From positions 23,994,001-24,058,000 of the forward strand of contig JANJGN010000026.1 of the NCBI GenBank assembly GCA_026770705.1: a DNA stretch of 64,000 nt, written 5' to 3'. The notes beneath the pieces were generated by a model. That model did not search any database. It was not told the origin of the DNA and saw only the letters and a program-made list of their open reading frames with translations. The DNA is from Isurus oxyrinchus (lineage: Eukaryota). Made by a program: the position numbers and the translations under genes. Shown one piece after another: positions 5,101-62,243 of the stretch. Position 1 is the stretch's first letter; each line of letters starts with the position of its first letter.

Positions 5101-5842
5101 GCATCGTGCAGAGATTACTGATACAGGGTCGAGATTAATCTAAACTGAGACATGGTCTAATGCAGTGATTACTGATATGGGCCTAGTAGAATATAAACTG
5201 AGGCAGGGCCGAGTGCAGTGATTACTGATACATGGTCTCAATCAATATTAACTCAGACAATGTCCAGTGCAGTGATTACTGACATACAGCCTAAATTAAT
5301 ATAAACTGAGGCGGGGTCTAATGCAGTGATAGGTGATATAGGGTCAGGATTAATATAAACAGGGAGAGGGCCAAATCCAGTGATTACTGATATAGGGTCT
5401 AAATTGATATAAACTGAGGCAGGGCATATTGCAGTGATTGCTGATACAGGGTATCGATCAATATGAACTGAGATATGTCCTAGTGCAGCGATTACTGATA
5501 AAGGGTCTAGATTAATATAAATTGAGGCAGGGTCTAGTGCAGAGATTACTGATAAAGAGTCTAGATTAATATAGGCTGAGACAGGGCCTGGTGCAGTGAT
5601 TAATGATACAGGGTTTTGATTGCTGTAAACTGAGACAGGGTCTAGTGAAGTGATTAGTGATGCAGGGCCTGATTTATTACCAACTGAGACAGAGCCTAGT
5701 GCAGTAATTACTGATACAGGGTTTCAATTGATAAAAACTGAGACAGGGTCTCGTGAAGTGATTACTTTTACAGGGCCGAGTTTAAAGTCAACGGAGGCAG
5801 GGTCCAATGTAATAATTACTGATACAGGGTCTCAGTTGATAT

Positions 5843-7237
5843 AAAAACAGAAAATGCTGGAAAAATGCCATCCCATTCTCTCAGTTTGGTCGCCTTCTTC
5901 TGTTCCGATGATGTCACTATCCAAAATGATGCTTCTGGCATGCCATCCTCCTTCCTTAACCAAGGTTTCCCACCCACTGTGGTTGACAGGGCCCTCAACC
6001 GTGTCCGACCCATCTCCTGTGCCTCTGCTTTCACACATTCCTCTCTCTCCCAGAATCATGATAGGGTCCCCCCTTTCCTTACATTTCACCCCACCATCCC
6101 CGCATTCAAAGGATCATCCTCCACCATTTCCGCCAACTCCAACATGATGCCACCACCAAATACACGTTCCCCTTACCACTCCAATCCCATCCCCCACCCC
6201 TGTCAGCATTCCGTAGGGACTGTTCCCTCCAGGACACCCTGGTCCACTCCTCCATCAACCGCAACTCCTCATCCCCCATCCCGTGGGACCTTCCCAAGCA
6301 ATCAGAAAAGTTGCAACACCTGTCCCTTTACCTCCTCCCTCCTCACCGTCCAAGGGCCCAAATATTCCTTTCAGGTGAAGCACCGCTTCATTGCACCTGC
6401 TTCAATTTGGTCTACTGCATTCAATGCTTCCTAAGCAGCCTTCTCCAGATTGGGGACACCAAACACAGAGATAAAAACAAAAAAGAACTGCGGATGCTGG
6501 AAATCCAAAACAAAAACAGCATTACACCAAACACAGACTGGCAGACAGCTTTGTGGAACACCTTCGTTCTGCCTGCAACCTTGACCTAGACATTCCTGTC
6601 GCTTGCAATTTCAACACAACAACCTGCTCTAATACCCACATGACCCTCTTTGACCTGCTGCATTGTCACAGTGAAGCGCAAAGCAAACAGGAGGAACAGA
6701 ACCTCATCTTCCGATTATGCGCTTTACAGCCTTATTCATTTATTCATTGTTTTATCCTCTTTTTATCCCCTTTTTTTTTTCCTTTTTATACTGTTTTTTC
6801 CCCAACCATCACCCCCTCCCCCTACCACATCTCCAAAAGGGTCATCAGTTACTTGTCCCATGCTGTTCTTTCACAGTGTGCTGATTCTGGCTCTGCTGTT
6901 AACACATTCTTCTTTCTTATCTTATGACTCTATTAGCACCTACTTTAGCCTTACCACTACCATTCACACTCCCTTTTTCTTTTTGCCTATGATACGTTTG
7001 TCAGTGTCACCATGCCCATACCTATTGCTTGTCTTCTATCCAACCTGACCTCTCCACCCCGCTTAAACAGCAATATCATCACATTTTGAGTTCTCTTCAG
7101 CTCTGAGGAAGGATCACGCCCTCTCAGAAAGTTAGCTCTGCTTCACTCATCACAGGTGCTGTCAGACATGCTGTGATGTCCCAGCATTTCATGCTTTTCT
7201 TTTAAGATTTCCAGCAGCCACAGTGTTTTGCTTTTAT
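5843..7237 (+). mobile_element. Penelope-like fragment, copy 2 (with an extra 54 bp insertion)
   Basis: Paralogous to copy 1 in the same satellite context. ORF pieces CFNLVYCIQC...IGDTKHR and EHLRSACNLD...EEQNLIFRL. Confidence 0.85.
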
Positions 7238-10200: not shown

Positions 10201-11192
10201 TGCAAAGTCTAGATCAATATAAACTGACGCAGGGTCTAATGCAGTGATCATTGATACACGGTGTGGATAAATATAAACTGAGACAGCGTCTAGCACAGTG
10301 ATTACAGATACAGGGTCTAGATTAATATAAATGGAAACAGGACAGAGTTCAGTGATTAAAGAAACAGTCTTTTGGTTAATATTAAATGAGACAGGGCCGA
10401 GTGCAGTGTTTAATGATGCAGGATTCTAGATTGATATAAACTGAGGCAGAGCATTGTGCAGAGATTACTGATACAGAGTCGAGATTAATCTAAATTGAGA
10501 CATGGTCTAATGCAGTGATTACTGATATGGGCCTAGTAGAATATAAACTGAGACAGGACCGAGTGCAGTGTTTACTGATACATGGTCTCAATCAATATTA
10601 ACTCAGACAATGTCCAGTGCGGTAATTACTGACATAGAGCCTAAATTAATATAAACTGAGGCAGGGTCTAATGCAGTGATAAGTGATACAGGGTCAAGAT
10701 TAATATAAATAGGGAGAGGGCCAAGTGCAGTGATTACTGATATAGGGTCTAAATTGATATAAACTGAGGCAGGGCATATTGCAGTGATTGCTGATACAGG
10801 GTATCGATCAATATGAACTGAGATATGTCCTAGTGCAGCAATTACTGATAGAGGGTCTAGATTAATATAAACTGAGACAGGGTCTAGTGCAGAGATTACT
10901 GATAAAGGGTCTAGATTAATATAGGCTGAGACAGGGCCTGGTGCAGTAATTAATGATACAGGGTTTTGATTGATGTAAACTGAGACAGGGTCTAGTGAAG
11001 TGATTAGTGATGCAGGGCCTGATTTATTATCAACTGTGACAGAGCCTAGTGCAGTAATTAATGATACAGGGTTTAGATTGATATAAACTGAGACAAGGTC
11101 TAGTGAAGTGATTACTTTTACAGGGCCGAGTTTAATGTCAACGGAGGCAGGGTCCAATGTAGTAATTACTGATACAGGGTCTCGGTTGATAT

Positions 11193-12520
11193 AAAAACAG
11201 AAAATGCTGGAAAAATGCCATCCCATTCTCTCAGTTTGTTGACCTCCTTCACATCTGTTCCGATGATGCCACTATCCAAAATGATGCTTCTGGCATGCCT
11301 TCCCTCTTCCTTAACCAAGGTTACCCACCCACTGTGGTTGGCAGGGCCCTCAACCGTGTCCGACCCATCTCCTGTGCCTCTGCTTTCACACATTCCTCTC
11401 TCTCCCAGAATCATGATAGGGTCCCCACTTTCCTTACATTTCACCCCACCACCCCCACATTCAAAGGATCATCCTCCACCATTTCTGCTAGCTCCAACAT
11501 GATGCCACCACCAAATACACCTTCCCCTTACCACTCCAACCCCACCCTCCACCCCTGTCAGCATTCCGTAGGGACCGTTCACTCCAGGACACCCTGGTCC
11601 ACTCCTCCATCACCTGCAACTCCTCATCCCCTTCGCAGCGGACCTTCCCAAGCAATCAGAAAAGTTGCAACACCTGTCCCTTTACCTCCTCCCTCCTCAC
11701 CGTCCAAGGGTCCAAACACTCCTTTCAGGTGAAGCACCGCTTCATTGCACCTGCTTCAATTTGGTCTACTGCATTCAATGCTACCAATGCAGCTGTCTCC
11801 AGATTGGGGACAGCAAACACAGACTGGCAGACCGCTTTGTGGAACACCTTCGTTCTGCCTGCAACCTTGACCTAGAGCTTACTGTCACTTGCAATTTCAA
11901 CACACCAACCTGCTCTAATACCCACATGTCCCTCTTTGACCTGCTGCCTTGTCGAAGTGAAGAACAACGCAAACAGGAGGAACAGAACCTCATTTTCTGA
12001 CTATGCACTCTACAGCCTTATTCATTTATTCATTGTTTATATCCTCTTTTTATCCCCTTTTTATTCCTTTTTATACCGTTTTTCCACAACCGCCCCCCAC
12101 TCCTCCTACCACACCCCCAAAAGGGCCATCAGTTACTTGTCCCATGTTGTTCTTTCACAGTGTGCTGATTCTGGCTCTGCTGTTAACACATTCTTCTTTC
12201 TTATCTTAATGGCTGTATTAGCACCTACTTTAGCCTTACCACTACCATTAACAAACCCTTTTTCTTTTTGCCTATGATACGTTTGTCAGTGTCACCTTAC
12301 CCCAGCCTATTGCTTGTCTTCTATCCAACCTGACCTCTCCACCCTGCTTAAACAACAAATATCATCACATTTTGAGTTCTCTTCAGCTCCAAGGAAGGGT
12401 CATGCGGTCTCAGAAAGTTAGCTCTGCTTCTCTCATCAGAGGTGCTGCCAGACATGCTATGATGTCCCAGCATTTTATGCTTTTATTTCAGATTTCCAGC
12501 AGCCAGTGTTTTGCTTTTAT
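11193..12520 (+). mobile_element. Penelope-like fragment, copy 3
   Basis: ORF 11665-12000 reads NLVYCIQCYQCSCLQIGDSKHRLADRFVEHLRS (GIY-YIG-like). Same flanks as copies 1 and 2. Confidence 0.85.
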
Positions 12521-15500
12521 CCGGATTGATATAAGCTGTGTCAGTGCCGAGTGCAGTGCTTACTGATGGAGGGTCTAGATTATCATAAACTGAGACAGGG
12601 TCTAGTGCAGTGTTTACTGTTACAGGACCTCAATCAATATAAATTCAGACAATGTCCAATGCAGTGAGTACTGATACGGGGTCTAGGTTGATATACACTG
12701 AGGCAGGCCATAGTGCAGTGATTACTCATGCAGAGCTGAGATAAAAATAAACTAGGACAGGGTCTAGTGCAATGATTACTGATACAGGGTGTAGATCAAT
12801 ATAAACAGAGAGAGTATCCACTGCACTGATTATGTTATAGAGTCTAGATCAATATAAACTGAGAGTGTCCAGTGGAGTGATTACTGATACAGGGTCTGGA
12901 TTAATAAAACTTGAAACGGGGCCAAGTGCAATGATTACTGATATCGGGTTTAGGTTGATGTAAACTCATGCAGGGGCTAGTGCAACAATTACTCATAAAG
13001 GATCTCGATTGATACGAACTGAGGCAGGGCCAAGTGCAATGATTACTGATACAGGGTCTAGCTGGATATAAGATAAGGCATGGCATTGTGCAGTGATAAC
13101 AGATTGAGGCTCTTGACTAATATAAACTGATACAGGGTCTAGTGCAGTGATTACTGACACATTGTCTACATCAATATAAACTGAGGCAGTGTCCAGTCGA
13201 GTGATACAGGGTCTTGATTAAGATGAACTGAGACAGCGTATAGTGCTGTGATTACTGTTACAGTGTCTGGACTAAAATAAACTGAGACATTCTCTAGTTC
13301 TGTCATTACTAACATAGGTTCTGGACTAATATAAACTGAGATAAGGTCTAGTGCAGCGATTACTGATACAGGATATGGATTCATATAAACTGAGGCATGG
13401 TAGGGTGCGGTGATTACTGATACAGGGCAGAAATTATTATAAAGTGAGACAGTGTCCATTGCGCTGGTTATGATACAGGGTCTAGATAAATAGAACATGA
13501 GACAGGATGAAATGCAGTGATTACTGCCATAGGGTTTAGATTGATATAAACTGATGCTGGGTCTAGTGCAGTGATTACTGACACAGGGTCTTGATCAATA
13601 TCAACAGAGACAGGGGCTAGTGCAGTGATTACTGATACAGGGTCTATATAAATATATACTGGGATGGGGATCAGTGCAGTGATTACTGATACAGGGTCTG
13701 GACTCATATAAACTGAGGAATTCTCTAGCTCTGTCATGATTGATACAGGGTGTGGATTAATATAAACTGAGACAGGGTCTAGCGAAGTGATTCCTGATAC
13801 AGGATCTGGATTGATATAAGCTGAGGCATGGCATAGTGCAGTGATTACTGATGCAGGGCCTAGATAATAAAAACAAGAACAGCAGCTAGTGCAGTGATTA
13901 CTGATATGGGGGTCTAGATCACTATAAAGTGAGGGTGTCCATTGCACTGATTATTATACAGGTCTGGATTTATATAAAATGAGACAGGCTCTAATGCAAT
14001 GATTATTGATACAGGGTCTGGATCAATATAAACTGAGACAGGTTCCAGTGCAGCGATTCATGAAACAGTGTCTAGATGATAAAAACTGAGGCAGGGCATA
14101 GTGCAGAGATTATTGAGGCAGGGTCTGGATTAATGTAAACTGAGACAGAGCCAAGTGCAGTGATCACTGATACTGAGCCGAAGTAAATATAAAGTAGGAC
14201 AGAAGCTAGTGCAGTGATTAATGATACAGGATCAGAATCAATATAAACTGAAGCAGTATCCATTGAAGTGATTACTGACACATGGCCTGAATTAATATGA
14301 ACTGAGGCAGGGCCTAGTGCAGCGATTACTGATTTAGGGTCTAGATTAATATAAACTGGGGCAGGGCATAGTGCAGTGATTAGTGATACATGGTCTTGAT
14401 CAATATAAACAGCGACAGGGCCTGGTGCAGTGATTACTGATAGACGGCCTAGGTTGATATGAAGTATCTCTGTGTTTGATATGAAGTGAAGCAGGGACTA
14501 GTGGAAGATTACTGATACAGGGACTAGATTAATATAAACTAGGACAGGGGCTAGTGCAGTGATTAATGATACAGGATCAGGATCAATATCAACTGAGACA
14601 GTGTCCATTGAAGTGATTAAAGTTACAGGGTGTACATCAATATAAACTGAGATAGGATCGAGTGCAGTGATTAATGATACAGTGTCTGGATTAATATAAC
14701 GTAAGACAGTGTCTGGTGCAGTGATTACTGATCCAAGGTCTTGCTAACTATGAAACTGAGATAGTGTCTACTGCAGTGATTACTGATACATCATCTAGAT
14801 TAATATGAACTGAGTCATAGCCTAGTGCAGTGATTACTGATTTCGGGTCTAGATTGATATAAACTAAGACAGGGCAAATTGCAATGATTACTGATACAGG
14901 GTCTCGGCTAATAGAAACTGAGGGCCAAGTGCAGTGATTATAGATTCAGGGTGCAGATTATTATAACCAGAACAGGGGCGAGTGCAGTGATGACTGAAAC
15001 AGGGGCTTGATTAATCTAAGCTGAGACAGGCTCTTGTACAGTAATTGCCCATACACAGCCTGAACTAACATAACATGAGACAGGGCCTGGTGCAGTGTTC
15101 ACTGACACAGGGCCTAGATTAATATAACTGGGACAGGGGCTCAGGCAGTGATTTCTGCTGCAAGGTCTAAATTAATATAAACTGAAACAGGGCCTAGATA
15201 AATATAAACTAGGACAAATGCTAGTGCAGTGATTAATGATACAGGATCAATATAAACTGAGGCAGTGTCCTTTGCAGTGATTATTGATACAAGATCTAGA
15301 TCAATATAAACTGAGGCAGGGTCTCGTGCAGTGATTACTGATACATAGTCTAGATTAAGAGAAACTGAGTCAGGGCTGAAATAAATATTAATTAGGACAA
15401 AGTCTAGTGCAGTGATTAATGATACAGGATCAGGATCAATATAAACTGAGGCAGCGTCTTTTGCAGTGATTACTGATACAAGATCTAGATCATTATCAAC

Positions 15501-16409
15501 TGAGATAGGGCCTAGTGCAGTGATTACTGATATGGAGTCTGGATTAATATTAACTGAAACAGGGCCTAGTGCAGAGATTACTGATACAGGGTTTTGATTA
15601 ATATAAACTGAGGCAGGGCATTGTGCAGTGATGACTGATGCAGGCTCTATGTTAATATAAACTGAGGCAGGGTCTCGTGCAGTGATTACTGATACAGGGT
15701 CTATTTGATATAAACTGAGTCAGGGCATATTGCAGTGATACAGGGCCGAGATCAATGCATATGGAGACAGTGTTTGTTGCAGTGATTACTGATGCACGGT
15801 CCTGATTATTAAAAACTGAGGCACTGTGAAGTGCAGTGAATGCAGATACAGGACCCAGGTTGATATTAACTGAGGCAGGGCATAGTCAGTGATTACTGAT
15901 ACTATGTCTAGATAAATATAAACTGAGACAGGCTCCAGTGTAGATATAACTGATGCAAAATCTAGATCAATATAAACTGACACAGGGTCTAATGCAGTGA
16001 TGATTGATACAGAATCTAGATTAACATAAACTGAGACAGGGTCTAGTGCAGAGATGACTGATAAAGGGTCCAGATTAATATAAACTGAGGCAGGGTCCAG
16101 TGCAGAGATTACTGATAAAGGGTCTAGATTAATATAAACTGAGACAGTGTGTAGTGCAGTCATTCCTGATATATGATCTGGACTAATATAAAATGAGAGA
16201 GGGCCAAGTGCAAGAATTACTTCATTATTGACAACCATATCCCAAGAACAAATTAAAATGCTGGAAGTCACTGCGGATTCTGGAAATCTAAAGCAGGGCA
16301 AAAGGTAACCACTCAGCAGGCCAGTGGGCATCAGTAGAGAGAGAAACAGATCAAACTTTCAGGTCGATGACAGGTGCAAAATCTCCCTTGGTACCATTCT
16401 ATAGAGCAG

Positions 16410-22455: not shown

Positions 22456-22583
22456 GTGAGTAATTTTTATTTTCCAAGTCTCTCACTGTTGCTGTCTCAG
22501 TGTTAATCTCTCTCTGGAATGTTACAGAGTCAGGAATCATTTCACCAGGATTAATCCTCGGGGTTTTTGATATATTTTTACAG

Positions 22584-22888
22584 GTGTCCAGTCGGATATT
22601 TCATCCTATCAGCCAGGGACAGAGACCGGGCGTCCCGGAGGCTCCCTGAGACTGACCTGTAAAACCAGCGGCTTCGATCTTGGTAGTGCTTTCATGCACT
22701 GGTTCCGACAGGTTCCCGGACAGGGACTGGAATGGTTGGTTTATTACTATAGTTCATCCAGCAACAGCTACGCCCCAGCAATTAAGAATCGATTTACTGC
22801 ATCCAAAGACACTTCAAGGAACATCTTCTCCTTGGACATGAAAAACCTGAAGATTGAAGACACCGCCATCTATTACTGTGCAAGAGGC
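22584..22888 (+). CDS. IGHV: VH exon (leader end plus V domain), germline and unrearranged
   Basis: Acceptor tttttacag. Translation [76 protein letters not shown]...[11 protein letters not shown] has the canonical Cys, Trp and YYC. Confidence 0.97.
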
Positions 22889-23286: not shown

Positions 23287-23369
23287 GGTTTCTGTGCGGG
23301 TGTATTTCACTGTGATACTACAGCAGTGAGTCACAGTGCAGTGCACAGCGACATCCTCATACAGAAACT
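23287..23369 (+). other. D1 segment (ATACTACAGCAGTGAGT, 23315-23331) with 5' 12 bp RSS and 3' 22 bp RSS
   Basis: GGTTTCTGT-12-CACTGTG | D | CACAGTG-22-ACAGAAACT. The 12/22-23 flanking is characteristic of shark D1. Frames read YYSSE, TTAVS and one with a stop. Confidence 0.93.
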
Positions 23370-23677
23370 CAGAAGGAGTTTGTTTAAATTGGTGATCTCT
23401 AACACAGCAGGAACGTCAAAAGAAATTGGATTTAAGTAAAATAATGAACAGAGGTAATATTGGTTTGTAAAAAGATGCACAATCCTTCCACTTTGTTCAT
23501 GCTGATGGGCATGCTAAATCTGCAAAGAGGTTTTAAAAGAATTCCATCACATTTATGAATATAATGCCCAGTACAAGCTGAAATATCTCACTGATTTACT
23601 CTTAGACGAGTCGGAATCAGGTTTTTGGAAAGCGCTGTGAGATTACATCTCTATATTTACAGTAAACAATCTGCCGC

Positions 23678-23746
23678 AGTATTTGACATGGTGTGTCTCA
23701 CTGTGATAAACTGGATGGCACAGCAGTTACTGTCAATACAAAAACC
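23678..23746 (+). other. D2 segment (ATAAACTGGATGG, 23706-23718) with 12/12 RSS
   Basis: AGTATTTGA-12-CACTGTG | D | CACAGCA-12-ACAAAAACC. Confidence 0.9.
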
Positions 23747-24066
23747 CCTCAGCACTAATTGAGTCTGCCTGGGTCAGTGCTCTCTTTTACAATCCTGTTA
23801 TATTTACAGTGAAGTATTATTTTTGTCCAGCACTGCCCAAAAAACATGGTTTAAGATAGAAAAGCTGTGATAATTATGCATTCATCAGTTGGTGATTTCA
23901 ATAACAAGTTAATTTGTTACTCTGTGAAATATAAAACATGAGGGTCATTGATGAATAGCTAAATATATTTACAAACACAAATATAATTTCATAAAGATTC
24001 ATCATGACCTTACTTTGCCCCTGACTTATGAATATTTAAAATAACTTTTTTTTTTTGCGTAGGGAC

Positions 24067-24105: not shown

Positions 24106-24153
24106 ACGCTATGAGCTATTGGGGACAAGAGACCATGGTGACGGTGGCTGCAG
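24106..24153 (+). CDS. IGHJ: JH segment: AMSYWGQETMVTVAA
   Basis: Follows the RSS. WGQx-TMVTV pattern. Phase-1 donor G|gtaaga matches the Cmu1 acceptor phase. Confidence 0.93.
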
Positions 24154-28344: not shown

Positions 28345-29375
28345 AACAAACTGAATCAGCATCGAACTAACTGGCTGTGAGTTCTCGAGCCAGATCTGTG
28401 AAAATAAATTGCTTCATTGCTCAGTTGAAATTCTTCTTATCATGTCTATGGACGGTCTGTACATGGCCCAACCAGAACTGGACAAAGTTTTGTGCCTTGC
28501 TGTTGAATTTGGCAAGATCTGCAACAGTGCAGGGTTCCTCTAGTGATAGGCGTTGCAGGAGATGTTGCATAGTCTGTGGCTCAGTTCACCATTCACAAGT
28601 TGTAGGGCTGGTTCTATATCCCCATTTGCTTAGTAACATCTTTGAACGGTCTACACCAGTCCTAAGTCTGTTAAGGCACTTCCAGGTTGCCCAGTTGCAA
28701 TTAGCTCCTGGGGGAAGGCTTTCATCCGGTAGAATTTCCATCGCTGGGGGTTGTTCGAGACTGGTGAGCCGGTCTTTCCACAAGGTGATGCGGGCTTCAG
28801 ATGGAGTTGATTGTAATGGAACAACACAGTTCATGAAGCTCTTCCTTGACTTTAGGTGGCTGGGTGTAGGTGTATGACCATGTAGAGGGTGCCTCTCATC
28901 TGATGTTTGACGGAGTCGCTCTTTCTTGCTGGTTACCATTCTTCTTATATCGGGGGAGCGATACTTGCCAGAATATATAGGCTGTTGGTGTTTGTTGGTT
29001 TTAAACAACCTGTGATAAGTCGGCAGCTTGCATTCAGAACGGCATCCAATCCTTAGCATGAGTAGATCTTTCCCATGCAGGGCAGGCGTATTTAGCAGTG
29101 GAATAGCAAACAGCAAGTGCACTGATTCGCAATGTTTTCGAGCTTGCTTCCCATTTTGTGTTAGTGAGCTTATTCAGGATGCTATTTCCTGCGCTCACTT
29201 TTGCCTTTGTCTTTTCGATGTGGTTCTTGAAGGTGAGGCATCTGTCAAGGGTGACTCCTAAGTAGACAGGGTGCTCGCAATGCGTCAGTGTTCCTCCACA
29301 CCAGGTTACTTTAAGCTGGCGTTTGGCTTCATGGTTTCTGAGGTGGAATGCACGGACTTACATCATTTCGGTTGA
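28345..29375 (-). mobile_element. 5'-truncated Ingi/Vingi-like LINE, frameshifted
   Basis: Minus-strand translation: AFHLRNHEAKRQLKVTW...HPVYLGVTLDRCLTFKNH...LITGCLKPT...APPDIRR...HPLHGH...LKSRKSF...LPPGANCNWATWKCLNRLRTG...KWGY. Confidence 0.75.
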
Positions 29376-29789: not shown

Positions 29790-30635
29790 CGACACACTCA
29801 GTCTCTCTCCCACACACCCTCACTCGCTCACTCTTTGACACATACTTCTCTCATACACACCCACACTCACACTCTCTCTCACACACACACTCTTTCTCAC
29901 ACACTCGCTCTCTCCCTCACACATACACACTCACACCCTTTCACACACTCACGGTCTGTCTCTCACATACAAATTCTTCTTAACATGCACTCACTCTGTG
30001 TCCCTCACCCATTGCCTCTCTCTTTCACACACACTCTCACACACAGAGACTAGCATTCTCTCATACACATATACTCTCACATACACACACTCTCACACAC
30101 ATATGCACGCTCTCACACACACGTGCACACTATCTCTCATATACAGAGACACCCTTTCTTTCTGACACATGTATTCTCACACATACACATGCACTCACAC
30201 ACTCATTCTCTCTCTCTCACACACACACCCTCTCTCTTATGCACACACTCTTACACACATGTACTCTCTCTCCCACATACACACACACACTCACACTCTG
30301 ACACACACAGCCTCATTCTCTCTCTCTCTCATGCAGATACTCCCTCTCTCTCTGGCACGTGCACACACACACACACACACTCACACACACATAACCATTC
30401 TCTCCCTAAAACACTCTTTCTCTTTTACACATATGTTCTCCCTCTCACACACATATGCTCCCTATCACACACACGCATACAGACACACTCTCTCTCTCTC
30501 ACACACACACACACTTTCTCTCCCACTTACACACACATTCTCTATCTCACACACTCTCTCTCCCACACTTATGTTCCCTATCACACACACACTCTCCCTC
30601 TCTCAAACACACACACACACACATTCTCACACACA
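29790..30635. repeat. Compound (CA)n/(CT)n low-complexity tract
   Basis: Directly visible in the sequence. Confidence 0.95.
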
Positions 30636-31043
30636 GAAGTGGGCTGAAAATACCAATTGCAGAATGAAAATCCATGAAGCTGCATGCATGTTCATTATTC
30701 CATTTCTGATGTCTTTTGGTGTAACATGAAAGTAAACAGGTGACATCACCATGTATGGACAGAATTTCCATGTGCTGAACTGGACACAAAGAAACAAGGA
30801 AAGGGGAGGGATGTGGCGGAGACCACAGCCGGCTGGATCCCCAATACTGGTGCACACTTGGTGCAAGATGCCTGCACGGCCCATCCTGGATTTGCTGTAC
30901 CCTTCCCCTCCAGCCCCCTCAGTCTGCCTATTCACGCACTGACACGGGTTTCTCAAAGAAAGGCATCGGCATTAAAGCAGCTGGCCAGCAATCTACACTG
31001 CTGCCTGACTTTACACAGCCAGTGTTACTGAAAGCTGATCAAT

Positions 31044-31217
31044 ATGGAGAATCAGAACAAGATTGATGGAGAGGAAGAGGAGGAGGTGGGCGTGGTGGAG
31101 CCAAATGGAGGAACGCCCAGCTCGGCTGTGGATAACAGGCAACGGAAAACTGAGCTGGAGCAGAAAATCATCTGGAGAAACATTGCCTTGATGAGCCTTC
31201 AGCACCTGGGCACCCTC
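31044..31217 (+). pseudogene. SCD5: Stearoyl-CoA desaturase (SCD5-like) N-terminal fragment
   Basis: MENQNKIDGEEEEE...ELEQKIIWRNIALMSLQHLGTL matches the SCD motif (I/V)WRN..LMSLLHLGA. Trp at residue 44 with no intervening intron fits SCD5 better than SCD1. Truncated into a microsatellite. Confidence 0.75.
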
Positions 31218-32470
31218 ACTACCCACAATCACTCACCCTCACTCACCCTCACCCACCCTCACTCATTCACCCTCACCACCGACCCTCACTAATTCACCCT
31301 CACTCACTCACCCTCACACATCTACCCTCACTCAATCACCCTCACTCATCCACCCTCACTCATTCACCCTCACTCATTGTCACTCACTCACTCACTCTCA
31401 CACACACTCTCACACACTCACTCACTCTCACTCACCCACCCTCACTCACTCACCCAGCCTCACTCACTCACCCAACCTCACTCACTCAACCACACTCACT
31501 CACCCAGCCTCATTCATCCTCACTCACTCAACCACACTCACCTACCCTAACTCACTAACCCTCACTCACCCTTAGTTACCCACCCAGCCTCACTCACCCT
31601 CACACACTCACTCTCACACACTCACTTTCACACACTCACTCACTCACCCATCCTCACTCACTCACCCATCCTCACTCACTCACCCACCCTCACTCACTCA
31701 CCCACCCTCACTCACTCACCCACCCTCACCCACTCAACCACACTCACTCAACCACACTCACTCAACCACAGTCACTCAACCACAGTCACTCAACCACACT
31801 CATCCTCACTCACTCAACCACACTCACCTACCCTAACTCACTAGGCCTCACTCACTTACTCTCATCCAACTTCACTCATTCACTCACCCTCATCCACTCA
31901 GCATCAATTACTCACTCATTCTCACTCACTCACTCACCCTCATCACACTCACTCAGCCTCACTCACTCATTCAGCCACACTCACCTACCCTCACTCATTC
32001 ACCCTCACTGATTCACCCTCTGTCACCCACCCACCCTCACTCACCCACCTTCACTCACCCACTCACCCTCATTCACTCACGATCACTTACCATCACTTAC
32101 TCATCCTCACTCACGTTCATTCACTCACCCTCAATCACTCACCCACCCTTACTCACCTATCTTCACTCGCACTCAATCACTCATCCACTCTTGCCCACCC
32201 ACCCTCATTCACCCACTCACACACTCACCCACCCTCACACAACCACCAACCCTCACTCACCCACTCATCTAACCTCATTCAATCATCCACCCTCACTCAC
32301 TCATCCACTCTCACTCACTCACTCACATTCAGATATGCACCCACGCTTACTCACCACCCACCTTCCCTCACCCCTTCACTCACTCACCCTCACTCAACCA
32401 CCCACCCTCACTCTGTCCCTCAGCCGCACTCACACGGTCACTCAGGCACACGCTTACACACTCAATCACT
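31218..32470. repeat. (CACT/CACCCT)n C/A-rich simple repeat
   Basis: Directly visible. Almost no G on the + strand. Confidence 0.95.
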
Positions 32471-32479
32471 TTTCCTAAA

Positions 32480-33700
32480 TCGGTGGGTGGGAGGATGAGA
32501 GGGCAGGAGCTGCGGGGAAGGGAGACCTGGAAGTGAGGCCTGAGGCCTTGCAGTGCCCGCAAGTGGAGCAGGGCTGCAGGGAATGATGAGCATTGGTGGA
32601 AAGCGTGGAGCACCGGGGGGAAAGGACAGTGAGCTGGCAGAAAAGGGCAGACAGCCGGGGCGGTCGGTGGTGGGAAACTCAAAAAGCCGGGGGAAGGGGC
32701 TGACGGCCAGGGGAAAAGGCAAAGTGCCCGGCTGGGTGGGGTGGGAGCGAAGTCAGGGAACAAGAGGAGAGGGCAGAGGGCCGGGGTAAAGGGCAGAGGG
32801 CCTGGGGAAAGGACTGAGAGCCCATGGGAAAGGACCGAGAGCCTGGGGGAAAGGTCCGAGGGCTGGGGGGAAAGGGCCGAGAGGAAATGACCGAGGGCCG
32901 GTGGGGGGGAGGACCGAGGGCCGGGAGGGAATGGCCGAGGGCCAGGAGGGGAGGACCGAGGGCCGGGAGGGGAGGGCCGAGGGCCGGGGGGGAAGGGCCG
33001 AGGGCTGAGAGGGGGGAAGGGCCGAGGGCTGGGGGGAAGGGCCGAGGGCCGTGGGGAAAGGGCTGAGGGCCGGGGGGAAGGGCTGAGGGCCGGGGGGAGA
33101 AGGGCCGTGGGTTGAGGGGGGAAAGGGCCGAGAGAAGTGTGAAAGCACAGAGAGGTTGGGGGAAGGCACCAAGAGCCTGGTGAAAGTGCAGAGAGCCAGG
33201 GGAAAGGGAAGAGAGCTGGGGAAAAGGGGAAGAGAGGTGGTGGAAAGAGTAGAGAGAAGGAGGAAAGGGAAGAGAGCTGGGGGAAAGGGAAGAGAGCTGG
33301 GTGGAAAGGGAAAAAAGGCAGTGGAAAGAGCAGAGAGAAGGGGGAAAGCGCAAAGAACCAGGAAAAAGGGCCGCGAGTTGGGGGGTGCGGGGAAGGGCTG
33401 AGAGGCAGCGGGATGGGCCGAGAGGTGTGAGGAAGTGCTGGGAACTGGAGGAAAACACCAGGAGGTGGGGAAAGGGCCTTGAGGTGGGGGGAAGGGCGGA
33501 GAGAAGGCTGAAAGCACAGAGAGCTGGGGGAAAGATAAGAAAACCAGGGGAAGAGGCAGACAGCCGGGGAGGAAAGGGCATAGAGCCGGGATGGGAGTAT
33601 GGGGGGAAGCTCAGGGAGTCGGGGGAAAGAGCAAATACCCGAGGGAAAGGGCAGAGAGCCAGGTGATAGCGGGGATAGCCTGGGGAAAGCAATTGCGAGT
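32480..33700 (+). repeat. G/purine-rich tract with GGGCCGA and GAGCTGGG repeats
   Basis: Many runs of 3 or more G. (GAGGGCC)n core at ~32780-33130. GAGCTGGG at ~33213, 33274, 33294 and 33521. Confidence 0.9.
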
Positions 33701-34069
33701 CGAGGCCCCAGGCACCCTGTGCCCCACTTTCTCTCTCTCTCTCTCCCTTATTATCTCTCATCCTCCTGAAATTCTTTCCATTCCTGGGGAAAGGCGATGT
33801 GTGGCTGGGATGGAAGGGAGACAATGTATTTGTGCGCTTCCTAATGGGTCTCTGTGCCTCTCCCTGGCCGATATTCACTGCCCCTCCAATCACAATCTGT
33901 TTCTCTCCCATGTTTCCTGCTGAGTGAGCCTATCCGCAATTAATGGGATAGAAGACCAGCCTGTGATTCAAGGAGAAGCTCCTTACATCTATCTTTAACT
34001 CCACTTAACTGCCTTACAGACATTTTGAACAATGGCTCCTGAGGCCACAACCCAACCACATGCCACAGA

Positions 34070-37000
34070 TTGGACAAGGCTGTAACAATCGAAAATAAGG
34101 AAATGGGCAGAGAAGTTGGACAAATATTTTGGCTTTAAAGAAGTGGCTGCTAAAATAGCAGAGGCATTGCTTTTAATTTTCCAAACTTCCCTCGATTCAA
34201 GAAAGATCCAGTCAGATTGTAAAATAGTGAATGAGGCTCATATATCAAATAAAGGAGGGAAAGAGAAATCAAGAAATGACAGGCCAGTTATCTTAACATC
34301 TGCCAAGGGAAAATGCTGGAATCTAGCACTAAGGAGTTTATCAAGAGTAATTTAGAAAATCCAAATGAAATTATGTAGATCCAACATGGTTTTGTGAAAA
34401 GGAAATCATGTTTGGCTGATTTATTTGAGGCCTTTGAGGAAGTAACAAGGAATGTGAATAATGGAGAACCTGGGGATGTACTGTATTTGGGTTTCCAGAA
34501 AGCATTTGAAAAAGTGCCACATCAAAGGTTACTATTCAAAATAAGAACTCATGGTATCAGGGGTAACATATCAGCATGTTATTCATATCACCAGAAGTTT
34601 AGTTAATTAATAGGAAACAGAGAATAGGGATAAATTAGTTATTTTAGATTGGCAAGATGCAACAAGTGGAGTGCCACAAGGATCAGTGCTGGAACCTCAA
34701 CTATTTACAATTTATATAAATGACTTCAATGAAGGGACCAAATTAATGCTTGATAAATTTGCTGATGACACAAAGGTTTAATTTAAAGGATAAATCATGG
34801 CAGGAGAGCTCAAAACCGTGGTGTGCTCCTCGTGCTCCATGTGGGAAGCCGGGAACATTTCCAGTGCCCGGGATACAGAATATTAGCAGAAAAGGGACAC
34901 ATAATAATACAGTAAAACAATCAAGTGAAAGGGAGTACAGCTGCATTAAGTTTCAATGGAGTAAGGAAAAGCTGGATGGCCTCTATTTTAATGCCAGGAG
35001 TGTTAATAGGTGAACGGATGAGTTAAGAATGAGGATTGGCAAGTGGAATTGTGATATTGTAGCCATCACGTGATTGAGCGAGGGGTGGGATTGGCAGCTC
35101 AACTTTCCAGGGTATAGAATCTTCAGCTGAGACAGGGGAGGGGTAAAAGAGGAGGAAGCATTGCAGTATTAGATAAGGAGACAGTTACTCCAGTAAGGAG
35201 ATGATATCTTGGAGGGGGCATCGAATGAAGCTTTGTGGGTAGAGCTTAGGAATAGAAAAGGGGCAACCACATTCTTAGGTGCTGATTATAATAAATAATA
35301 AGATAGTAAATGGGAAATAGAGGAGCAAATATGTGCACAATTTGCTGAGGTGTGTAAAACAATAGCAATCGGGTAATTATATTAGGTGATTTCAACTTTC
35401 CCAGCATTAATTGGGATGGACATAGTGTTAAAGGTTTGGATGGAGTGGACTTCTTGAAATGTGTACAGGAGAACTTTTTAGGTCAATGTGTAGAGAGTCC
35501 AACAAGGGACGGCACAAAGCCAGCCTGAATTCCAGGGAATGAAGGCAGACAGCTGGCTGAGGTGGTGGTGGTGGGGGGGCGGGGGGGGAGCATTTTAGTG
35601 AAAGCGACCATAACATGGTACAATTTAAGTTTGTTATGGACAAAGAAAGAGACAAGTTGCAAAAAAATGTTTTGGAGTGGGGGAGAGCGAATTTTAGTAA
35701 AATAAGGCAGGATCTGGGAGCAGCTACTTGTGGCTAAATCTACAGAGGAGCAGTAGGGGGCGTTCAAAAAGGAAATGGGAAAGGGTACAGGCTCAACATG
35801 TTCCCTTTTGGGTGATAGGAAGGAGTAACAAGCCCAGAGAACCATGGATGACCAGGGATATTCAGGTTATGATGAGAAGGAAAAGAGAGGCTTTTGGCAG
35901 GTACAAGGGAAGCAAATCAACGGAGGAATTAGTAGAATACAGAAAGTGCAGGATGGAGCTTAAGAAAGCAATTAGGAGAGCAAAGAGGGGATATGAGAAA
36001 GCTCTGGCTGGTAAAGGTAGGGAAATCCCAAGATATTCTATAAGCATATCAATGGGAAGAGGATAAGCAGGGAATGAGTAATGCCCATTAGAGACCACGG
36101 GAGGAATCTATGGGTGGAGCCAGAGGACATCAGTGAAGTGTTGAATGAATACTTCACATCTGTCTTCACCCTGGAGAATGAGGATGAAGGTATGGAACTC
36201 GGGGAGAGAGACTGCGAGGTTCTTAAGCAAATTAATATAGGGAGTGACAAGGTATTGGAGGTGTTGGCAGGCTTAAAAGTGGACAAATCTCCAGGTCTGG
36301 ATGATTTGTGTCCCAGGCTGCTGAGGGAGGCAAGGGAGGAGATCTCAGGGGCTCCGACCCAAATTTTTAATTCCTCTCTGGCAACGGGGGAAGTGCCAGA
36401 CGACTGGAGAGCAGCTAAGGTGGTTTAGTTATTTAAGAAGGGTTGAAGAGATAAGCCAGGGAACTACAGGCCAGTGAGTCTCCCGTCTGTGGTAAGGAAA
36501 CCATTGGAGAAAATTCTGAAGGAATCTATGTCCACTTGGAGAGGCAAAGTTTGATCAGGGATAGTCAGCATGGCTTTGTCAGAGGGAGGTCATGCCTTAC
36601 AAATTTGACTGAATTTTTTGAGAAGGTGACCAGGTATGTAGATGAGGGTAGTGCAGTTTATGTAGTTTATATGGATTTCAGCAAAGCCTTTGCCAAGGTC
36701 CCAGATGGGAGACTTATAAAGAAGGCAAATGCACATGGAATACAGAGTAATTTGATAAGGTGGATTCAAAATTGGCTTAGTTGTAGGAGACAGAGGGTGA
36801 TGACAGAAGGATGCTTTATTGACTGAAAGCAAGTGTCCAGTGGCGTAACACAGGGATCTGTGCTGGATCCCCTATTATTTGTCATTTATATAAACGACAT
36901 TGATGGTTATGCAGGGGATAGGATAAGTACGTTTTTGGATGACACAAAGATTGGCTGGGTGGTTAACAGTGAGGTTGAGTGTCTTGGGCTACAGGAAGAT

Positions 37001-38730
37001 ATAGACAGGATGGTCAAATGGGCCAATAAGTGGCAGATGGAATTTAACCCTGAAAAGTGTGAGGTGATGCACTTTGGAAGAAGTAATTTGACAAGGAAGT
37101 ATTCAATGAACGACATGACACTAGGTAGTTCTGAGGAACAAAGGGATCTTGTCGTGTGTGCCCATAGATCTCTGAAGGCGGTGGGGCATGTTAGTGGGGT
37201 GGTGAAAGTGGCATATGGGACACTTGCCTTTATCAATCGAGGCATAGATTATAAAAGTAGGGAGGTCATGTTGGAATTGTATAGAACCTTTGAGAAGCCA
37301 TAGCTGGAGTACTGTGTACAGTTCTGGTCGCCACATTATAGGAAGGATGTGATTGCACTGGAGGGGGTGCAGAGGAGATTCACCAGGATGTTGCCTGTGA
37401 TGAAACATTTAAGTTTTGAAGAGAGTTTGGATAGACTTGAGTTGTTATTGTTGGAGCAGAGAAGACTGAGGGGCGGCCTGATCGTGGTGTACATGATTTT
37501 GAGGGACATGGACAGGGTGCATAGGGAGCAGCCGTTCCCTTAGTTGAAAGGTCAGTCACGAGGAGGCATAAGTTCAAGGTGAGGGGCAGGAAGTTTAGGG
37601 GGATGTGAGGAAAAACTTTTGTTACCCAAAAGGTGGTGACGGTCTGGAATGCACTGCCTGGGAGGGTGGTGGAGGCGGATTGTCTCACATCCTTTAAAAA
37701 GTACCTGGATGAGCACTTGGCACGTCAAAACATTCAAGGCTATGGGCCAAGTGCTGGTAAATGGGATTTGGTAGGTAGGTCATGTGTTTCTCACGTGTCA
37801 GTGGGCCTCTTCTGCACTGTGTGATACTGTGATTCCGTGAAAGATAGGTAAGAAAGTAACTTGTGAAGAGGAGATAAAGGGTCAGCAAAGGGATTTCGAT
37901 GGATTAAGTGAGTGGGAAAAAATATGGCAGATGCAGTATAACGTGGGAAAATATAAATTTATCCACCTTGGCAGGAAGAATACAAAAACAGCATATTATT
38001 GAAAGGGGGAGGGATTGCAGAACACTGAAGCACAGAGGGACCTGGATCCCTTGGTGCATGAATTACAAAAAGTTACAATACAGGAACAGCAAAGGGAATG
38101 TTGTCATTTATTACAAGGGAATAGAATATAAAAGCAAGGATGTTTTGCTAAAGTTTAACAAGGCGTTGGTGAGACCTCGTCTGAATTACTGTATGCGGTT
38201 TTGGTCTCCTTTACGATAAGATATAAAAGCATTAGAAGCTGTTCAGAGAATGTTCATTCAACTGATGCTGAGAGGTGTTGTCGGTTATCTTATGAGGAAA
38301 GTTTGGATAGGCTGGGCCTGTATCCATTGGAGTTTAGTAGAATGAGAGCTGATTTTATTGAAACATATAAGATCCTGAGGGGAATTGACAGGGTGGATGC
38401 TGAAAGGATGTTTCCCCTTGTGGGAGAGACTAGAAACAGGGAACACAATTTATAAGTTAGAGGTCTCCCATTTCAGACAGAAATGAAGGGGTTTTATTTC
38501 CCTCTCAAAGGGTCGTGAAACTTTGGAACTCACTTCCCCGAAGAGAGATGGAGTCATTAATATTTCAAGGCAGAGGTAGAGAGATTCTTCATTGACACGG
38601 GAGTCAAAGATGAGCGGAGAGTAGGCGGGAATGTGGAGTTAACGTCACAATCAGATCAGCTATGATCGTATTGAATGATGGAGGAGGCTCGAAAGGCCGA
38701 ATGGCCTACTCCTGCTCCTGATTCGCATGT
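34070..38730 (+). mobile_element. Old CR1-type LINE (34070-34775 plus 37841-38730), split by a nested CR1
   Basis: RT motifs [21 protein letters not shown] and KFADDTK break at 34775 and resume as IGKKVTCEE at ~37844. Confidence 0.85.
34776..37840 (+). mobile_element. Nested CR1-type LINE (endonuclease plus RT, disrupted)
   Basis: YFNARS, GDFNFP, HGFVRGRSCLTNL, YMDFSKAF, QGSVL and FLDDTK motifs with stops and frameshifts. Same 3' tail as 1-305. Confidence 0.9.
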
Positions 38731-39271
38731 TCATATGTATATACGACTGGAAAATGTCGTACTTACTGTAACTGGTATTCAGTTTAGAGTTCTATGGTCA
38801 TTATATAGGTACCACCACAAAGGTACTTTCGAAGGGTCGTTGCTATTCTTAGTTTAGCAGGGACGTGGAGAGGGGAGGAGGCATCAGTCAATTTGAACAG
38901 AGCCAATTTCCAAAACTGCAATGATTTAAATGATACAAAGTGCTGCTGTTTGAGATATAAACTGTGGCCGGAATAATGGGGAAAATCCTCTGTTCTTCTA
39001 CTTTAATCTAATGAAAGGTACATTATTCAGATGGTATCAAATTGTTTTAATAATGTGATAGAGGTGGAGAAAGAGGTGTGGGTTTCTGAAGAGGGAATCG
39101 ACAGGTGAGGATGACCAAATGATGGAAATAATAGAAGTTCAAATGTCGATGTAGGTTTTAGCTGGAGTATATTAGGATATCCTTATAGTTATAGTCAAAA
39201 TTTTAGTTGTTTGGTTGCTTAATGACCACAACTCACAGAGTCTCACTTGTTCAATCGCCATTCTTTCCCAG

Positions 39272-39571
39272 CGACACCATCTTCGCCCACTCTCTACAGC
39301 CTGGTCTCCCCCTGTCAGCAACACAACACAGACGGTGCCGTCACCTACGGCTGTTTGGCGATGGACTACTCCCCAGAAATCACCAGCCTGACCTGGAAGA
39401 AAGATGGGCAGCCGATCACCACTGGATTTAAGACTTACCCGTCAGTGAGAAACCAGAAGGGAACCTACACCCTGAGCAGCCAGTTAACCATTACCGAGTT
39501 AGAGGGGGAATGCGGCAAAATCAAGTGTGAGGTTCGACAATTCGTCTCAGGCAAGAGCATTGGAATGCCAT
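39272..39571 (+). CDS. IGHM: IgM Cmu1 exon
   Basis: ttctttcccag|(A)[15 protein letters not shown]...[10 protein letters not shown]...LTWKK...YTLSSQL...CEVR...GMP T|gtaagt. Open frame. Confidence 0.96.
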
Positions 39572-39782
39572 GTAAGTGTTGGGGAACCTGTGAGAAACAG
39601 AAAGGTTGTGATTAACCTGTATAGGGCCTTGGTTATAACGCATCTATAGTGCTCTGCATAGTTCTAATCCCTGGGAAATCCAGGTTAGTTTCAATTTACC
39701 GCAAAGAGCCTGTTACAACGTTACTGATTGTATCAATTATCAATTTCTTCTGCAAGAAATGTCTAACCTATGTATCTTGAAG

Positions 39783-40103
39783 GTTCTCCAATTGAGATAT
39801 TCCCTCCAATTGTTCTCCTCACCGTGAGCTCCCGGGAAGAAATCAGAATCAACAAATTTGCAACCGTCGTCTGTTCAATCATCGATTTCCGTCCAAAGTC
39901 AATCGCCATGAAGTGGCTGAAGAATGGACAACCCATGGATTCAGGAATTGTCAACTCTCCCGCCTTTGAAGTGAACGGGAACGGGAACTTCTCGGCGACC
40001 AGTCGGCTGAAAGTCTCCGCTGGGGAATGGTTCACCGACGCGGTCTATACCTGTCAGGTCACTCATCAAGGGGTCACCCAAAGTCGAAACACCACCGGGC
40101 CTG
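39783..40103 (+). CDS. IGHM: IgM Cmu2 exon
   Basis: ttgaag|(C)[12 protein letters not shown]...[19 protein letters not shown]...NFSATSRL...YTCQVTH...NTTGP G|gtaaga. Confidence 0.96.
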
Positions 40104-40459: not shown

Positions 40460-40768
40460 ATGATTCCCACTGCCTCAACGATCCCACAATTACTGTACTG
40501 CCACCGTCAATAGAACAGGTCTTACTGGAGGCGACGGTGACCTTGACCTGCATCGTTTCTAATGCTCCTTATGGAGCTCTCGTGTCCTGGACCCAAGAAA
40601 AGAAGCCTTTGAAATCAGAGATTGCCGTCCAACCGGGAGAGGATCCCAACAGCGTGGTCAGCAACGTAAACATCTCAACACAAGCCTGGCTGAGTGGGGC
40701 TGAGTTCTACTGCGTGGTGAGCCATCAGGATCTGCCGACTCCTTTGAGAAGTTCCTTCCACAAGAGAG
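40460..40768 (+). CDS. IGHM: IgM Cmu3 exon
   Basis: ctcacag|(D)[30 protein letters not shown]...VSW...[15 protein letters not shown]...HKR G|gtgagc. Confidence 0.96.
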
Positions 40769-42067: not shown

Positions 42068-42459
42068 GTTATAATCTGCGGGAACCGTTCGTGTCTGTCC
42101 TCCTGCCGTCGGCAGAAGATGTCTCCGCTCAGAGATTCGTCTCCCTCAGCTGCTTAGTGAGAGGTTTCTCCCCGCGAGAGATCTTCGTCAAGTGGACAGT
42201 CAATGACAAGCCGGTGAATCCCGGGAACTACAAGAACACCGAGGTAGTGGCGGAGAACGGCAATCGCTCCTTCTTCATGTACAGCCTGTTATCCATTGCA
42301 GCGGAGGAGTGGGCCAGCGGCGCTTCTTACTCCTGTGTAGTGGGACATGAAGAGATCCCCTTGAAGATCATCAACAGAACGGTTGATAAATCCAGCGGTA
42401 AACCGAGTTTTGTGAACATTTCCCTTGCACTGATGGATACCGTTAATTCATGTCAATGA
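42068..42459 (+). CDS. IGHM: IgM Cmu4 exon plus secretory tailpiece
   Basis: tatgcag|(G)[42 protein letters not shown]...YSCVVGHE...[23 protein letters not shown]. Tailpiece has an N-glycan sequon and penultimate Cys. Internal membrane-form donor G|gtaaac after 42397. Confidence 0.97.
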
Positions 42460-44600: not shown

Positions 44601-45151
44601 CGCCAGCCTAATGATGAGAACATTGTTCAAACGTACTTTTTAAAGGACATATCCACCGACAGTTGTCCCTATTACACAATGACCCGACAAATGCATTGAA
44701 GCACTGTTCTTGCTGAGAAATTATTTAAGTTATTGACGTGCCAAATATTTCCATTACAAATAAATAAACATAATGGCAACTCACATCCGACCTTTTAAAC
44801 AGCAATGTTCACAGTTTCCAAAAAAAGTAGCTCATGAACCACTCCCGATATCCATCATAATATTCTCCAATAATAGGTCGTACGAAATTGTTCGAAAATG
44901 AACTGATATTGAAAAAAAATTGTCATACTTTTGACATGGACTACATGATGAATGTTAAGAAATAACAGCTGTGGCGATAGTTATAGGGATAGGTTGCTGA
45001 GTGTCACGAACTTAACAATAGATATACATTGAACATTAAACTAGAGAATAGTTTAATAGCTTAAGAAAGAGAAAGAAGGATATAAAACAACAGTAAGAAA
45101 TCCAGGATTAATAAACAATCTAATTATATTTCCTGCGTTATATCCCCATAG

Positions 45152-45279
45152 ATTCAACCGACCACACCTGGATTGAAGACTCTGAGGATGATAATGGCAA
45201 CATCTGGACAACCGCTTCCACATTCATCATCCTGTTCTTCCTGAGCATATCCTACAGCGCTGCCGTCACTCTGGTGAAG
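45152..45279 (+). CDS. IGHM: IgM transmembrane exon TM1
   Basis: tatccccatag|(D)STDHTWIEDSEDDNGNIWTTASTFIILFFLSISYSAAVTLVK|gtgaga. Acidic spacer plus the conserved antigen-receptor TM motif. Phase matches the Cmu4 donor. Confidence 0.95.
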
Positions 45280-46309
45280 GTGAGAAGATTCAATCCTCTC
45301 ACACCTCAAACTGACAGGAGCAGTTTGAAAAATCTCTCAATGTTTCATTGATTAAAACTTTAACATAAATACCCCAGATCATAGACATCTGCTTCATTAT
45401 TTACCCTCTTTTACAAATCAATTGATCGGTTGAATTTTGGACACCATAGTTTTTTTAGCGCTTTATTAAGTTCTCTGTATCCCGAATTAAAAATATGTCC
45501 TCTTGATGACTCTAAATGTGAAATACATTTAGTTTGTGATTCCGATTCTTTAACTGAGACAATCATGAGGGCATTTCTGATTTCCTGTTTGAAATGTGCG
45601 ATGTAATTGTGGCTGTATTGTAATGGTAGCTTATAATTTCCCTATAGTTTGAATTCCCTGTGTAAATAAGTAACTTTTCACTTTCCACATTCACAATTGT
45701 TCCCTTTACGTTGAGCTCCTGTTTTCTCCTTCTGGTGTCTCTTACAGTTGTACATGCAGCTGGCAGCTCAGAGCGAACGTGTTCTGTTCTCAATGTGACT
45801 CTCAGTCATTATATTCACTTCAGTTAATTTTAAAATAAACTTTTCTGAAAATGTTCCCTGAAATTGTTATGTGAATGTGAAACGAACTATGACTTTGCTG
45901 AACTCCTTTCTCCCAAGCCGATAGACACTGCTCCACTTTTCCTGTTACACGGTTCTCCCCCTTTTTCCCAGACAGGTATTTTTCATCAGTCCTGCCTGGG
46001 ATGTGTTTGAACCCAAGGCCCTTCGGTAAAAGAGTCACTGCGCCACCGAACGGCCAATCCGTGTAAAGGGACCTGGATCTCTGCCTTTTAATGGCAAACT
46101 CTAGAGGCAGAATGATTGCGCCGCGAGGAGAACCTCGGTGATTTCAGTCATATTCTGGTCTGTCACAGTCACATAGAAGGGAATTGTAAACTGCAGGGCT
46201 CCGCTTCATCAAAGGGCGGTATATGGAGGAAAAAAATTTCCTTTACACCGTCCCATCAAACACTCCCAGGGTCGGTGCAGCAGGTATTCGATACAGAGTA
46301 AAGCTTTCT

Positions 46310-61885: not shown

Positions 61886-62243
61886 CCATCTCTTCCCCTC
61901 CATCCATGGAAGGCCAAGCCTTGTGTAGGTCCAGACTGGGTGGCAGGTTCCCTTCTCTGAAGGACATTAGTGAACTAGTTAGGTTTTTATGACAATCCAG
62001 CAGTTTTCATGGTCACTTTTTCCTTGTGCCGGCTGCGCAAATTACCAAATTCATTCAGCTCAATTTCACAACCTGTCTATGTTTTTGTGGGTTCTCTCTC
62101 ACTCCTTTTTTTCTGTTTTAAATCAATTTCACAGGGGATTAGAAGGCGAGGATTTGCAGTCAGGAAGCTCGAACCCAAAATCACATCAGGATCTGACAAA
62201 GTCGCCCAATTTGTTGTAAACTGAAAATCATCGGATTTTGAAC

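Follow-up and report, generated by a model that had tools for sequence, protein, structure and literature searches.

Sharks exchange constant (C) regions between immunoglobulin clusters without known switch regions, according to the available parts of PMC4279169, PMC4588147, PMC8201067 and PMC5192425. The intron between J and Cmu1 of the IgM cluster studied here contains a G-rich tract which a first-pass annotation had proposed as a possible proto-switch or AID-recruiting element. By way of the J-C intron it could serve the inter-cluster isotype switching described in the accessible parts of PMC4279169, PMC4588147 and PMC8201067. The question is therefore whether it is a switch element. Probably it is not. 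With a probability of roughly two in three we consider it a minisatellite which expanded in an inserted block and was spread passively with cluster duplication, and which is predicted to form R-loops and does not constitute a switch region.

The window, i.e., the whole stretch of 64,000 nucleotides analysed (G000:C26:23.99-24.06 Mb of a 4.98-Gb genome), contains one complete cartilaginous-fish IgM cluster on the plus strand. The features of the cluster and of its J-Cmu1 intron are the following.

22577..22885, plus strand: IgM VH exon, open, followed by an RSS (tblastn with shark IgM proteins, 68-72% identity; open reading frame)
23300..23765 (approximate span), plus strand: two D segments with flanking RSS-like heptamers (direct sequence reading, against the RSS consensus)
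24106..24153, plus strand: JH segment, followed by a splice donor
28432..29367, minus strand: 947-bp insertion of a high-copy repeat, missing from the compared paralogs (depth; joint 28420-29368)
29790..30635, plus strand: low-complexity array of CA/TC, close to the left boundary of the lineage-specific block
30851..31216, plus strand: broken scd5 copy with 5' UTR and first ~55 codons (366 bp; 85% and 80% identity to G000:C1:37.784 Mb)
31211..32470, plus strand: (TCAC)/(CACCCTCACT)n array, C-rich on the sense and G-rich on the antisense strand
32480..33700 (1,221 bp), plus strand: G-rich, purine-rich minisatellite tract (composition, TRF, paralogs, second species)
32766-33132: inner 21/42-bp array of the tract (TRF)
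33172-33348: inner 20/61-bp array of the tract (TRF)
33700..34090, plus strand: 3' flank, 70-78% identical to paralogs, the fastest-diverging segment measured
34090..38750, plus strand: LINE-like fragments, presumably of CR1 type (RT-like translations)
39271..39573 (start ~39271), plus strand: Cmu1 exon, open
39803-40102, plus strand: Cmu2, open
40477-40767, plus strand: Cmu3, open
42073-42456, plus strand: Cmu4 with secretory tail, open
45151..45285, plus strand: IgM transmembrane exon

Cmu4 is 94% identical to that of a shark IgM. In the JH segment WGQE replaces the usual WGQG, which may impair the cluster, although every exon is open. Elsewhere in the window a 27/54-bp satellite (540-16212) is broken three times at ~5.2-kb spacing by C-rich inserts of 1.3 kb which resemble one another and have retroelement-like translations, and an open frame of 384 codons at 62220-63374 encodes tandem C2H2 zinc fingers.

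The tract consists of 615 G, 340 A, 171 C, and 95 T (50% G, 28% A). Because the whole cluster lies on the plus strand, the G-rich strand is the non-template strand, and the annotated G-rich non-template tract of about 1.2 kb is thus confirmed. Its mean G4Hunter score of 1.10 makes it the highest-scoring kilobase of the window. Eight of the nine canonical plus-strand quadruplex motifs of the window fall into it, together with 96 runs of at least three G (79±4 in 500 dinucleotide shuffles), in agreement with the quadruplex competence ascribed to it. The repeated motifs reported earlier were found again, GAGGGCC occurring 11 times (1.0±1.0 in the shuffles) and GAGCTGGG four times (0.5±0.7); both counts exceed all 500 shuffles, as expected for a tandem repeat. 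The scarcity of AGCT, which had been given as a caveat, turned out to be more serious than stated, since neither AGCT (7 versus 4.6±1.9, p=0.16) nor WGCW (19 versus 15.7±3.2) nor GGGGT (3 versus 5.8) is above chance in the tract as judged by the shuffles. The density of WGCW is 15.6/kb here and 18.4/kb in the rest of the window. The tract begins ~8 kb past the end of J at 24153. Its annotated distance of 5.6 kb to Cmu1 is correct, and is inflated by a 3.07-kb insertion (~34775-37840, within the LINE-like fragments) which only this copy carries; in the paralogs the distance is 0.9-2.6 kb. The core of the tract folds no better than shuffled sequence (z 0.69) in a fold model that does not include quadruplexes, and its CpG observed/expected ratio of 0.53 is the level of an ordinary intron, with no CpG island. 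As contigs of run X1, possibly the assembly's own sample, span the tract with two differences, the tract is no assembly artefact.

It had been held against a functional reading if the tract were unique to this copy. This is not so. A homologous tract was found in 33 of the 36 IgM clusters examined on C26, always G-rich on the sense strand and always between J and Cmu1, which answers the call to check presence, orientation, and position in other clusters. The paralogous tracts on C26 measure 411-3,476 bp, with 48-54% G and 1-13 AGCT each. When the best 40 of 112 Cmu1 candidates were taken, 38 had the tract; 16 of these clusters lie on small scaffolds and some of them resemble second copies of C26 loci, and C26 was therefore counted alone. 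The C26 count takes in the Cmu1 matches, another 11 clusters, and one neighbour; J-bearing units lacking a C domain, three in number, were excluded. IgM-type V-D-J units with no constant domain within the next ~18 kb are found at G000:C26:32.31, 34.57, and 37.55 Mb, and two of them, when compared, were 98.7% identical over 12.8 kb. The counts cover IgM; IgW and IgNAR clusters were not located.

Among the three tract-less clusters of C26, the one at 28.16 Mb is nested within the subfamily and has lost 7.6 kb of intron with its exons still open, while those at 24.43 and 27.17 Mb form a sister pair in which 2-3 kb of other sequence replaces the block. A search with a J motif gave 78 matches, of which ~42 on other contigs represent a second IgM family. 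No G-rich tract and no scd5 piece was seen in any of the 20 clusters of this family examined, i.e., 19 complete J-Cmu1 introns (5.4-8 kb) and one more cluster. Its exons are open (V in 8/8 fetched, Cmu1/Cmu2 in 19/19). The family is located on G000:C20, C38, C42, C49, C100, C146, and small scaffolds; its introns are short and plain, its V is 47-50% identical to the reference shark VH, and its Cmu1 ~79% to that of the window. In the tree it is set apart at 100/100. The tract-bearing branch is weak (87/77) and midpoint-rooted, and for this reason gain rather than loss is what we infer: a single gain of the block, drawn mainly from the foreign scd5 piece in it. The block has the same order in nearly all members of the subfamily. 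Some tract (at least 300 bp) is retained in 27 of 28 members compared, other intron segments away from J in 19-26 of 28 (scd piece 25/28, 3' flank 20/28); this favours retention, but is confounded by the length of the tract, since long elements are less easily lost completely.

The tract shares one block with the broken 5' piece of scd5, with arrays of CA and of TCAC, and with LINE pieces. On the left, homology with the tract-less sister cluster ends at 29624; on the right, homology with tract-less clusters restarts at ~38750. The desaturase piece, which we take with the first-pass annotation to be scd5 rather than scd1, is cut within its exon after the HLG motif, leaving out the native upstream region. 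It shares a motif with PDB 4zyo (E=2.2); protein searches with the 61-amino acid fragment gave no match, and a search with Pfam PF00487 led to three other desaturase-family loci, not scd. The native gene was located by motif search at C1:37.784 Mb. Over the 40 kb of this locus compared, only 30851-31216 of the window matches, dispersed repeats aside, and there is no TCAC array, no G-rich tract, and no 500-bp bin above 35% G. The alignment score between the piece and the native upstream region is 24, with shuffles reaching 31. The tract is hence not a copy of the present scd5 intron, as the native locus lacks it and the edges align like shuffles. The idea that it belongs to the SCD5 segment holds insofar as both sit in the same lineage-specific block, and fails insofar as native scd5 has no such tract. 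Directly 5' of the tract, the array at 31211-32470 has the opposite skew and contains four minus-strand quadruplex motifs, which had not been mentioned before.

Some further origins were considered. An origin as a copy of scd5 intron 1 is ruled out by the comparison just given. A fold-back joining the TCAC array and the tract was discarded since no minus-strand match is better than E=0.66. A dispersed satellite or transposon was also rejected: a 19-bp boundary motif gave 29 matches, of which 27 belong to the IgM region of C26 or to its scaffolds, and the other two to an unrelated satellite on C437 (31-bp unit, G000:C437:1500-6000), a chance match. Likewise, for the 3' flank 40 of 257 candidates were scored and every one of these 40 comes from the same region or its scaffolds; a distant source may lie among the others. 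As side observations, the broken scd5 5' piece has multiplied along with the IgM clusters (window and ~40 paralogs), and the divergence among its copies (0.084) is that of neutral intron. For a capture product it is unusual to consist of a 5' end alone, cut inside exon 1. At native scd5 (G000:C1:37.784-37.786 Mb) a 1.3-kb tandem repeat ends ~100 bp before the captured 5' UTR.

The repeat units of the tract are degenerate and 20-24 bp long. GAGGGCC, found 11 times here, occurs 0-2 times in 26 paralogs and is private to this copy; the paralogs have GGCAGAGAG instead, which occurs once here and 1-60 times in them. The motifs named by the first-pass annotation are not conserved between paralogs. 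The 22-bp form of the paralog unit has 135 exact matches. The 100 of them listed are confined to the IgM region of C26 and its scaffolds, from which it is drawn that the unit grew in place. G-rich, quadruplex-competent intronic minisatellites are a known class of variable number tandem repeats (VNTR). The tract has what defines a VNTR, a tandem unit within 10-60 bp, variable copy number, and unit turnover, and resembles this class in its degenerate unit, strand skew, and variable length. It differs from the class in that duplication of IgM clusters has multiplied it to 33 or more copies on a single chromosome, in an intron of genes which AID mutates. No tract of comparable strength was seen in 20 arbitrary 10-kb tiles, and it is therefore not commonplace DNA. 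Unrelated multi-kb G/C-skewed arrays outside Ig loci occur at C1:262.87, C16:22.07, and C16:73.56 Mb and on C3986. That at G000:C16:22.070-22.078 Mb, a 7-kb array with ~70% G on the minus strand directly after a broken LINE endonuclease-like fragment, is a parallel outside Ig loci, since there too a skewed array comes after a truncated piece.

Motif counts were compared with shuffled expectation over 27 tracts totalling 49,487 bp. AGCT remained at background (157 versus 130 expected; 3.2/kb, with 2.8/kb in tract-less introns and 1.0-5.9/kb in the 20 arbitrary 10-kb tiles), and GGGGT gave 192 versus 218 expected. The suggested count of WGCW against background yielded no enrichment; with 664 versus 1,087 expected, WGCW is depleted (tract-less introns 19/kb). 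GAGCT is found at about twice the shuffle (126 versus 62). Sense-strand RGYW reaches 52/kb compared to 24/kb in tract-less introns, a rise due to composition (2,584 observed versus 2,473 expected), and WRCY, representing the hot spots on a strand displaced by an R-loop, is at 9.5/kb versus 27/kb.

A part of the features of known switch regions is found in the tract. In 33 clusters it occupies the intron that precedes the first C exon, it is tandemly repeated with a length (1.2 kb here, 0.4-3.5 kb in paralogs) in or near the 1-10 kb range of switch regions, and its non-template strand is G-rich with G clusters as in the mammalian type. It thereby resembles mammalian S-mu, S-gamma, and S-alpha as portrayed in the available parts of PMC2442634 and PMC4245955, in its position between J and Cmu1, length of 1-3 kb, tandem structure, and non-template G clusters. 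The strong AGCT/WGCW enrichment which provides overlapping AID hot spots is lacking. Upstream of the 20 second-family and the three C26 clusters the tract is absent, and these may or may not take part in switching. A synthetic switch region with 46% G and four AGCT per 80 bp supports R-loops and class switch recombination (CSR) in mouse cells, and greater distance from the promoter lowered CSR, according to the sections of PMC4245955 consulted. The tract surpasses this region in G density (48-54%), and its AGCT density is ~15-fold lower (3.2/kb versus ~50/kb). Further differences from mammalian S regions are the depletion of WGCW, the unit (GGCAGAGAG or GAGGGCC instead of GAGCT/GGGGT), the fact that no I promoter was found, and the lack of the tract in other IgM clusters of this genome. 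The S-mu of Xenopus, which is AT-rich, works through AGCT with no G-richness or R-loops (excerpts of PMC2442634). In the axolotl, S regions were recognised by enrichment of AGCT or of RGYW plus WGCW, S-upsilon being called on the latter (excerpts of PMC9911811). With these amphibian S regions the tract shares the intronic location upstream of C exons and a raised RGYW as in axolotl S-upsilon. In contrast to it they are enriched in AGCT/WGCW, and Xenopus S-mu is rich in AT (same excerpts of PMC2442634 and PMC9911811). Taken together, the tract has the accessory feature of mammalian switch regions without the conserved one. No description of such a tract in shark IgM introns was found in a literature search to which the four primary nurse shark papers were external, which is a weak sign of novelty; the parts of PMC12227049 and PMC2435157 at hand contain nothing further on the intron.

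The tract is also found in a second species. Sixteen runs of this species contain 20-23% of sampled words, and an orthologous tract is present in contigs of five of them (X5, X9, X10, X13, and X14). The X13 contig differs from 32268-32989 of the window by 27 substitutions and 37 gap letters and from 33066-33267 by 6 and 26, so that over 924 bp of tract the substitutions add up to 33 and the gap letters to 63; the values are 37 and 15 for the stretch 33272-34120, and 4/352, 9/378, and 15/465 for flanking pieces. Judged by these alignments the tract predates the split from the second species and is no better conserved than its flanks. As proxies from the germline bear on germline events, and joints of contigs are not somatic junctions, the following results refer to the germline only. 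Distance matrices of up to 27 paralogs correlate at 0.41-0.55 for segments on either side of the tract; for other adjacent segments the range is 0.19-0.69. A germline exchange hot spot at the tract was rejected, with no special break there and clusters mosaic throughout. The IgM clusters at C26:24-40 Mb are mosaic, with a Cmu1-Cmu2 correlation of 0.19 and a V-Cmu2 correlation of -0.03, and such weak segment correlations point to frequent germline exchange between C26 clusters. A germline fragile site was dismissed as well: an apparent excess of deletions ending in the tract failed a tile map, in which several deletions start in unique flank and ~4 of ~14 events were left at the tract. An AID-like germline spectrum was not seen, WRC sites beside the tract varying no more than elsewhere, and variation at the neighbouring CpG sites is as fast as in the rest of the intron. 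One possible RNA run gave short repeat matches only.

How the tract arose and what it does can be pictured as follows. The ancestor of the subfamily would have received the block by one insertion, the array would then have expanded locally through slippage or unequal exchange, and duplication of whole clusters would have spread the tract passively. Upon transcription of the rearranged gene the G-rich RNA is predicted to re-anneal, and from its G density the tract is predicted to form R-loops and quadruplexes. Since the displaced strand would offer few AID hot spots and few paired ones, double-strand breaks would be expected to be inefficient.

Of the other readings, the likeliest is that the tract, a passenger by origin, has become a convergent aid to switching specific to this lineage, the R-loop or quadruplex stalling polymerase and binding AID, with breaks joining VDJ to the C region of another cluster. 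RGYW at 52/kb, although composition explains it, the doubled GAGCT, and the retention in 27/28 members speak against a mere passenger. The right intron and strand, the length, and the G density in 33 clusters and the persistence in a second species argue for a switch aid. So do the finding that G density alone raises R-loops and CSR (PMC4245955, in part), the ability of AID to bind and synapse R-loop substrates apart from deamination (accessible text of PMC13494559), and the C exchange between shark clusters cited at the outset (PMC4279169, PMC4588147, PMC8201067). However, AGCT is far below the synthetic S region and WGCW is depleted, the tract is remote from J, behind a C-rich array and with no captured native promoter, germline exchange shows no peak and germline variation nearby no WRC bias, and deletions in unique flank mostly do not abut the tract. 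We consider a switch aid unlikely on balance. The bolder proposal, that a convergent mammalian-style R-loop/quadruplex substrate, gained with an insertion and kept by over 30 clusters and by two species or more, focuses AID-dependent C exchange without AGCT repeats, is more doubtful still. The proto-switch or AID-recruiting idea thus fares unevenly: the tract is neither unique nor native scd5, and its G content exceeds 46%, but its AGCT is at background and its WGCW below it.

A transcriptional or RNA-processing element, i.e., a pause site or an array for a G-rich-motif factor tuning expression of the IgM subfamily and unrelated to AID, would fit the same retention and the strong switch of skew from TCAC array to tract. 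It is quite improbable, as the sequence is unconserved between paralogs or species, the CpG ratio and the variation of neighbouring CpG sites are those of the rest of the intron, and one cluster with open exons deleted the tract. Least credible of all is descent from an ancestral proto-switch region, which would make the tract a homologue of tetrapod S-mu. In its position and its G-rich non-template strand it does resemble mammalian S-mu (PMC2442634, available part), yet the tract is limited to one IgM subfamily, 20/20 second-family clusters lacking it, and has as its neighbour a piece of an unrelated gene which retains ~80% identity with the source. Because it is in the same lineage-specific block as this piece, an ancestral proto-switch is unsupported. 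In addition the S regions of amphibians, which stand between sharks and mammals, are defined by AGCT (PMC2442634 and PMC9911811, available parts); as they are so defined, and Xenopus S-mu is AT-rich and free of R-loops, G-richness looks like a mammalian addition.

One genome with two large IgM families, one with and one without the tract, and in addition with short, long, and deleted tracts, is a natural experiment. It bears on whether AID-dependent recombination is drawn by G-rich structure alone when AGCT is lacking. An inert tract would be an ordinary repeat, and a warning not to name switch regions on the strength of G-richness; a tract in use would represent an independent origin of a mammalian-type switch substrate.
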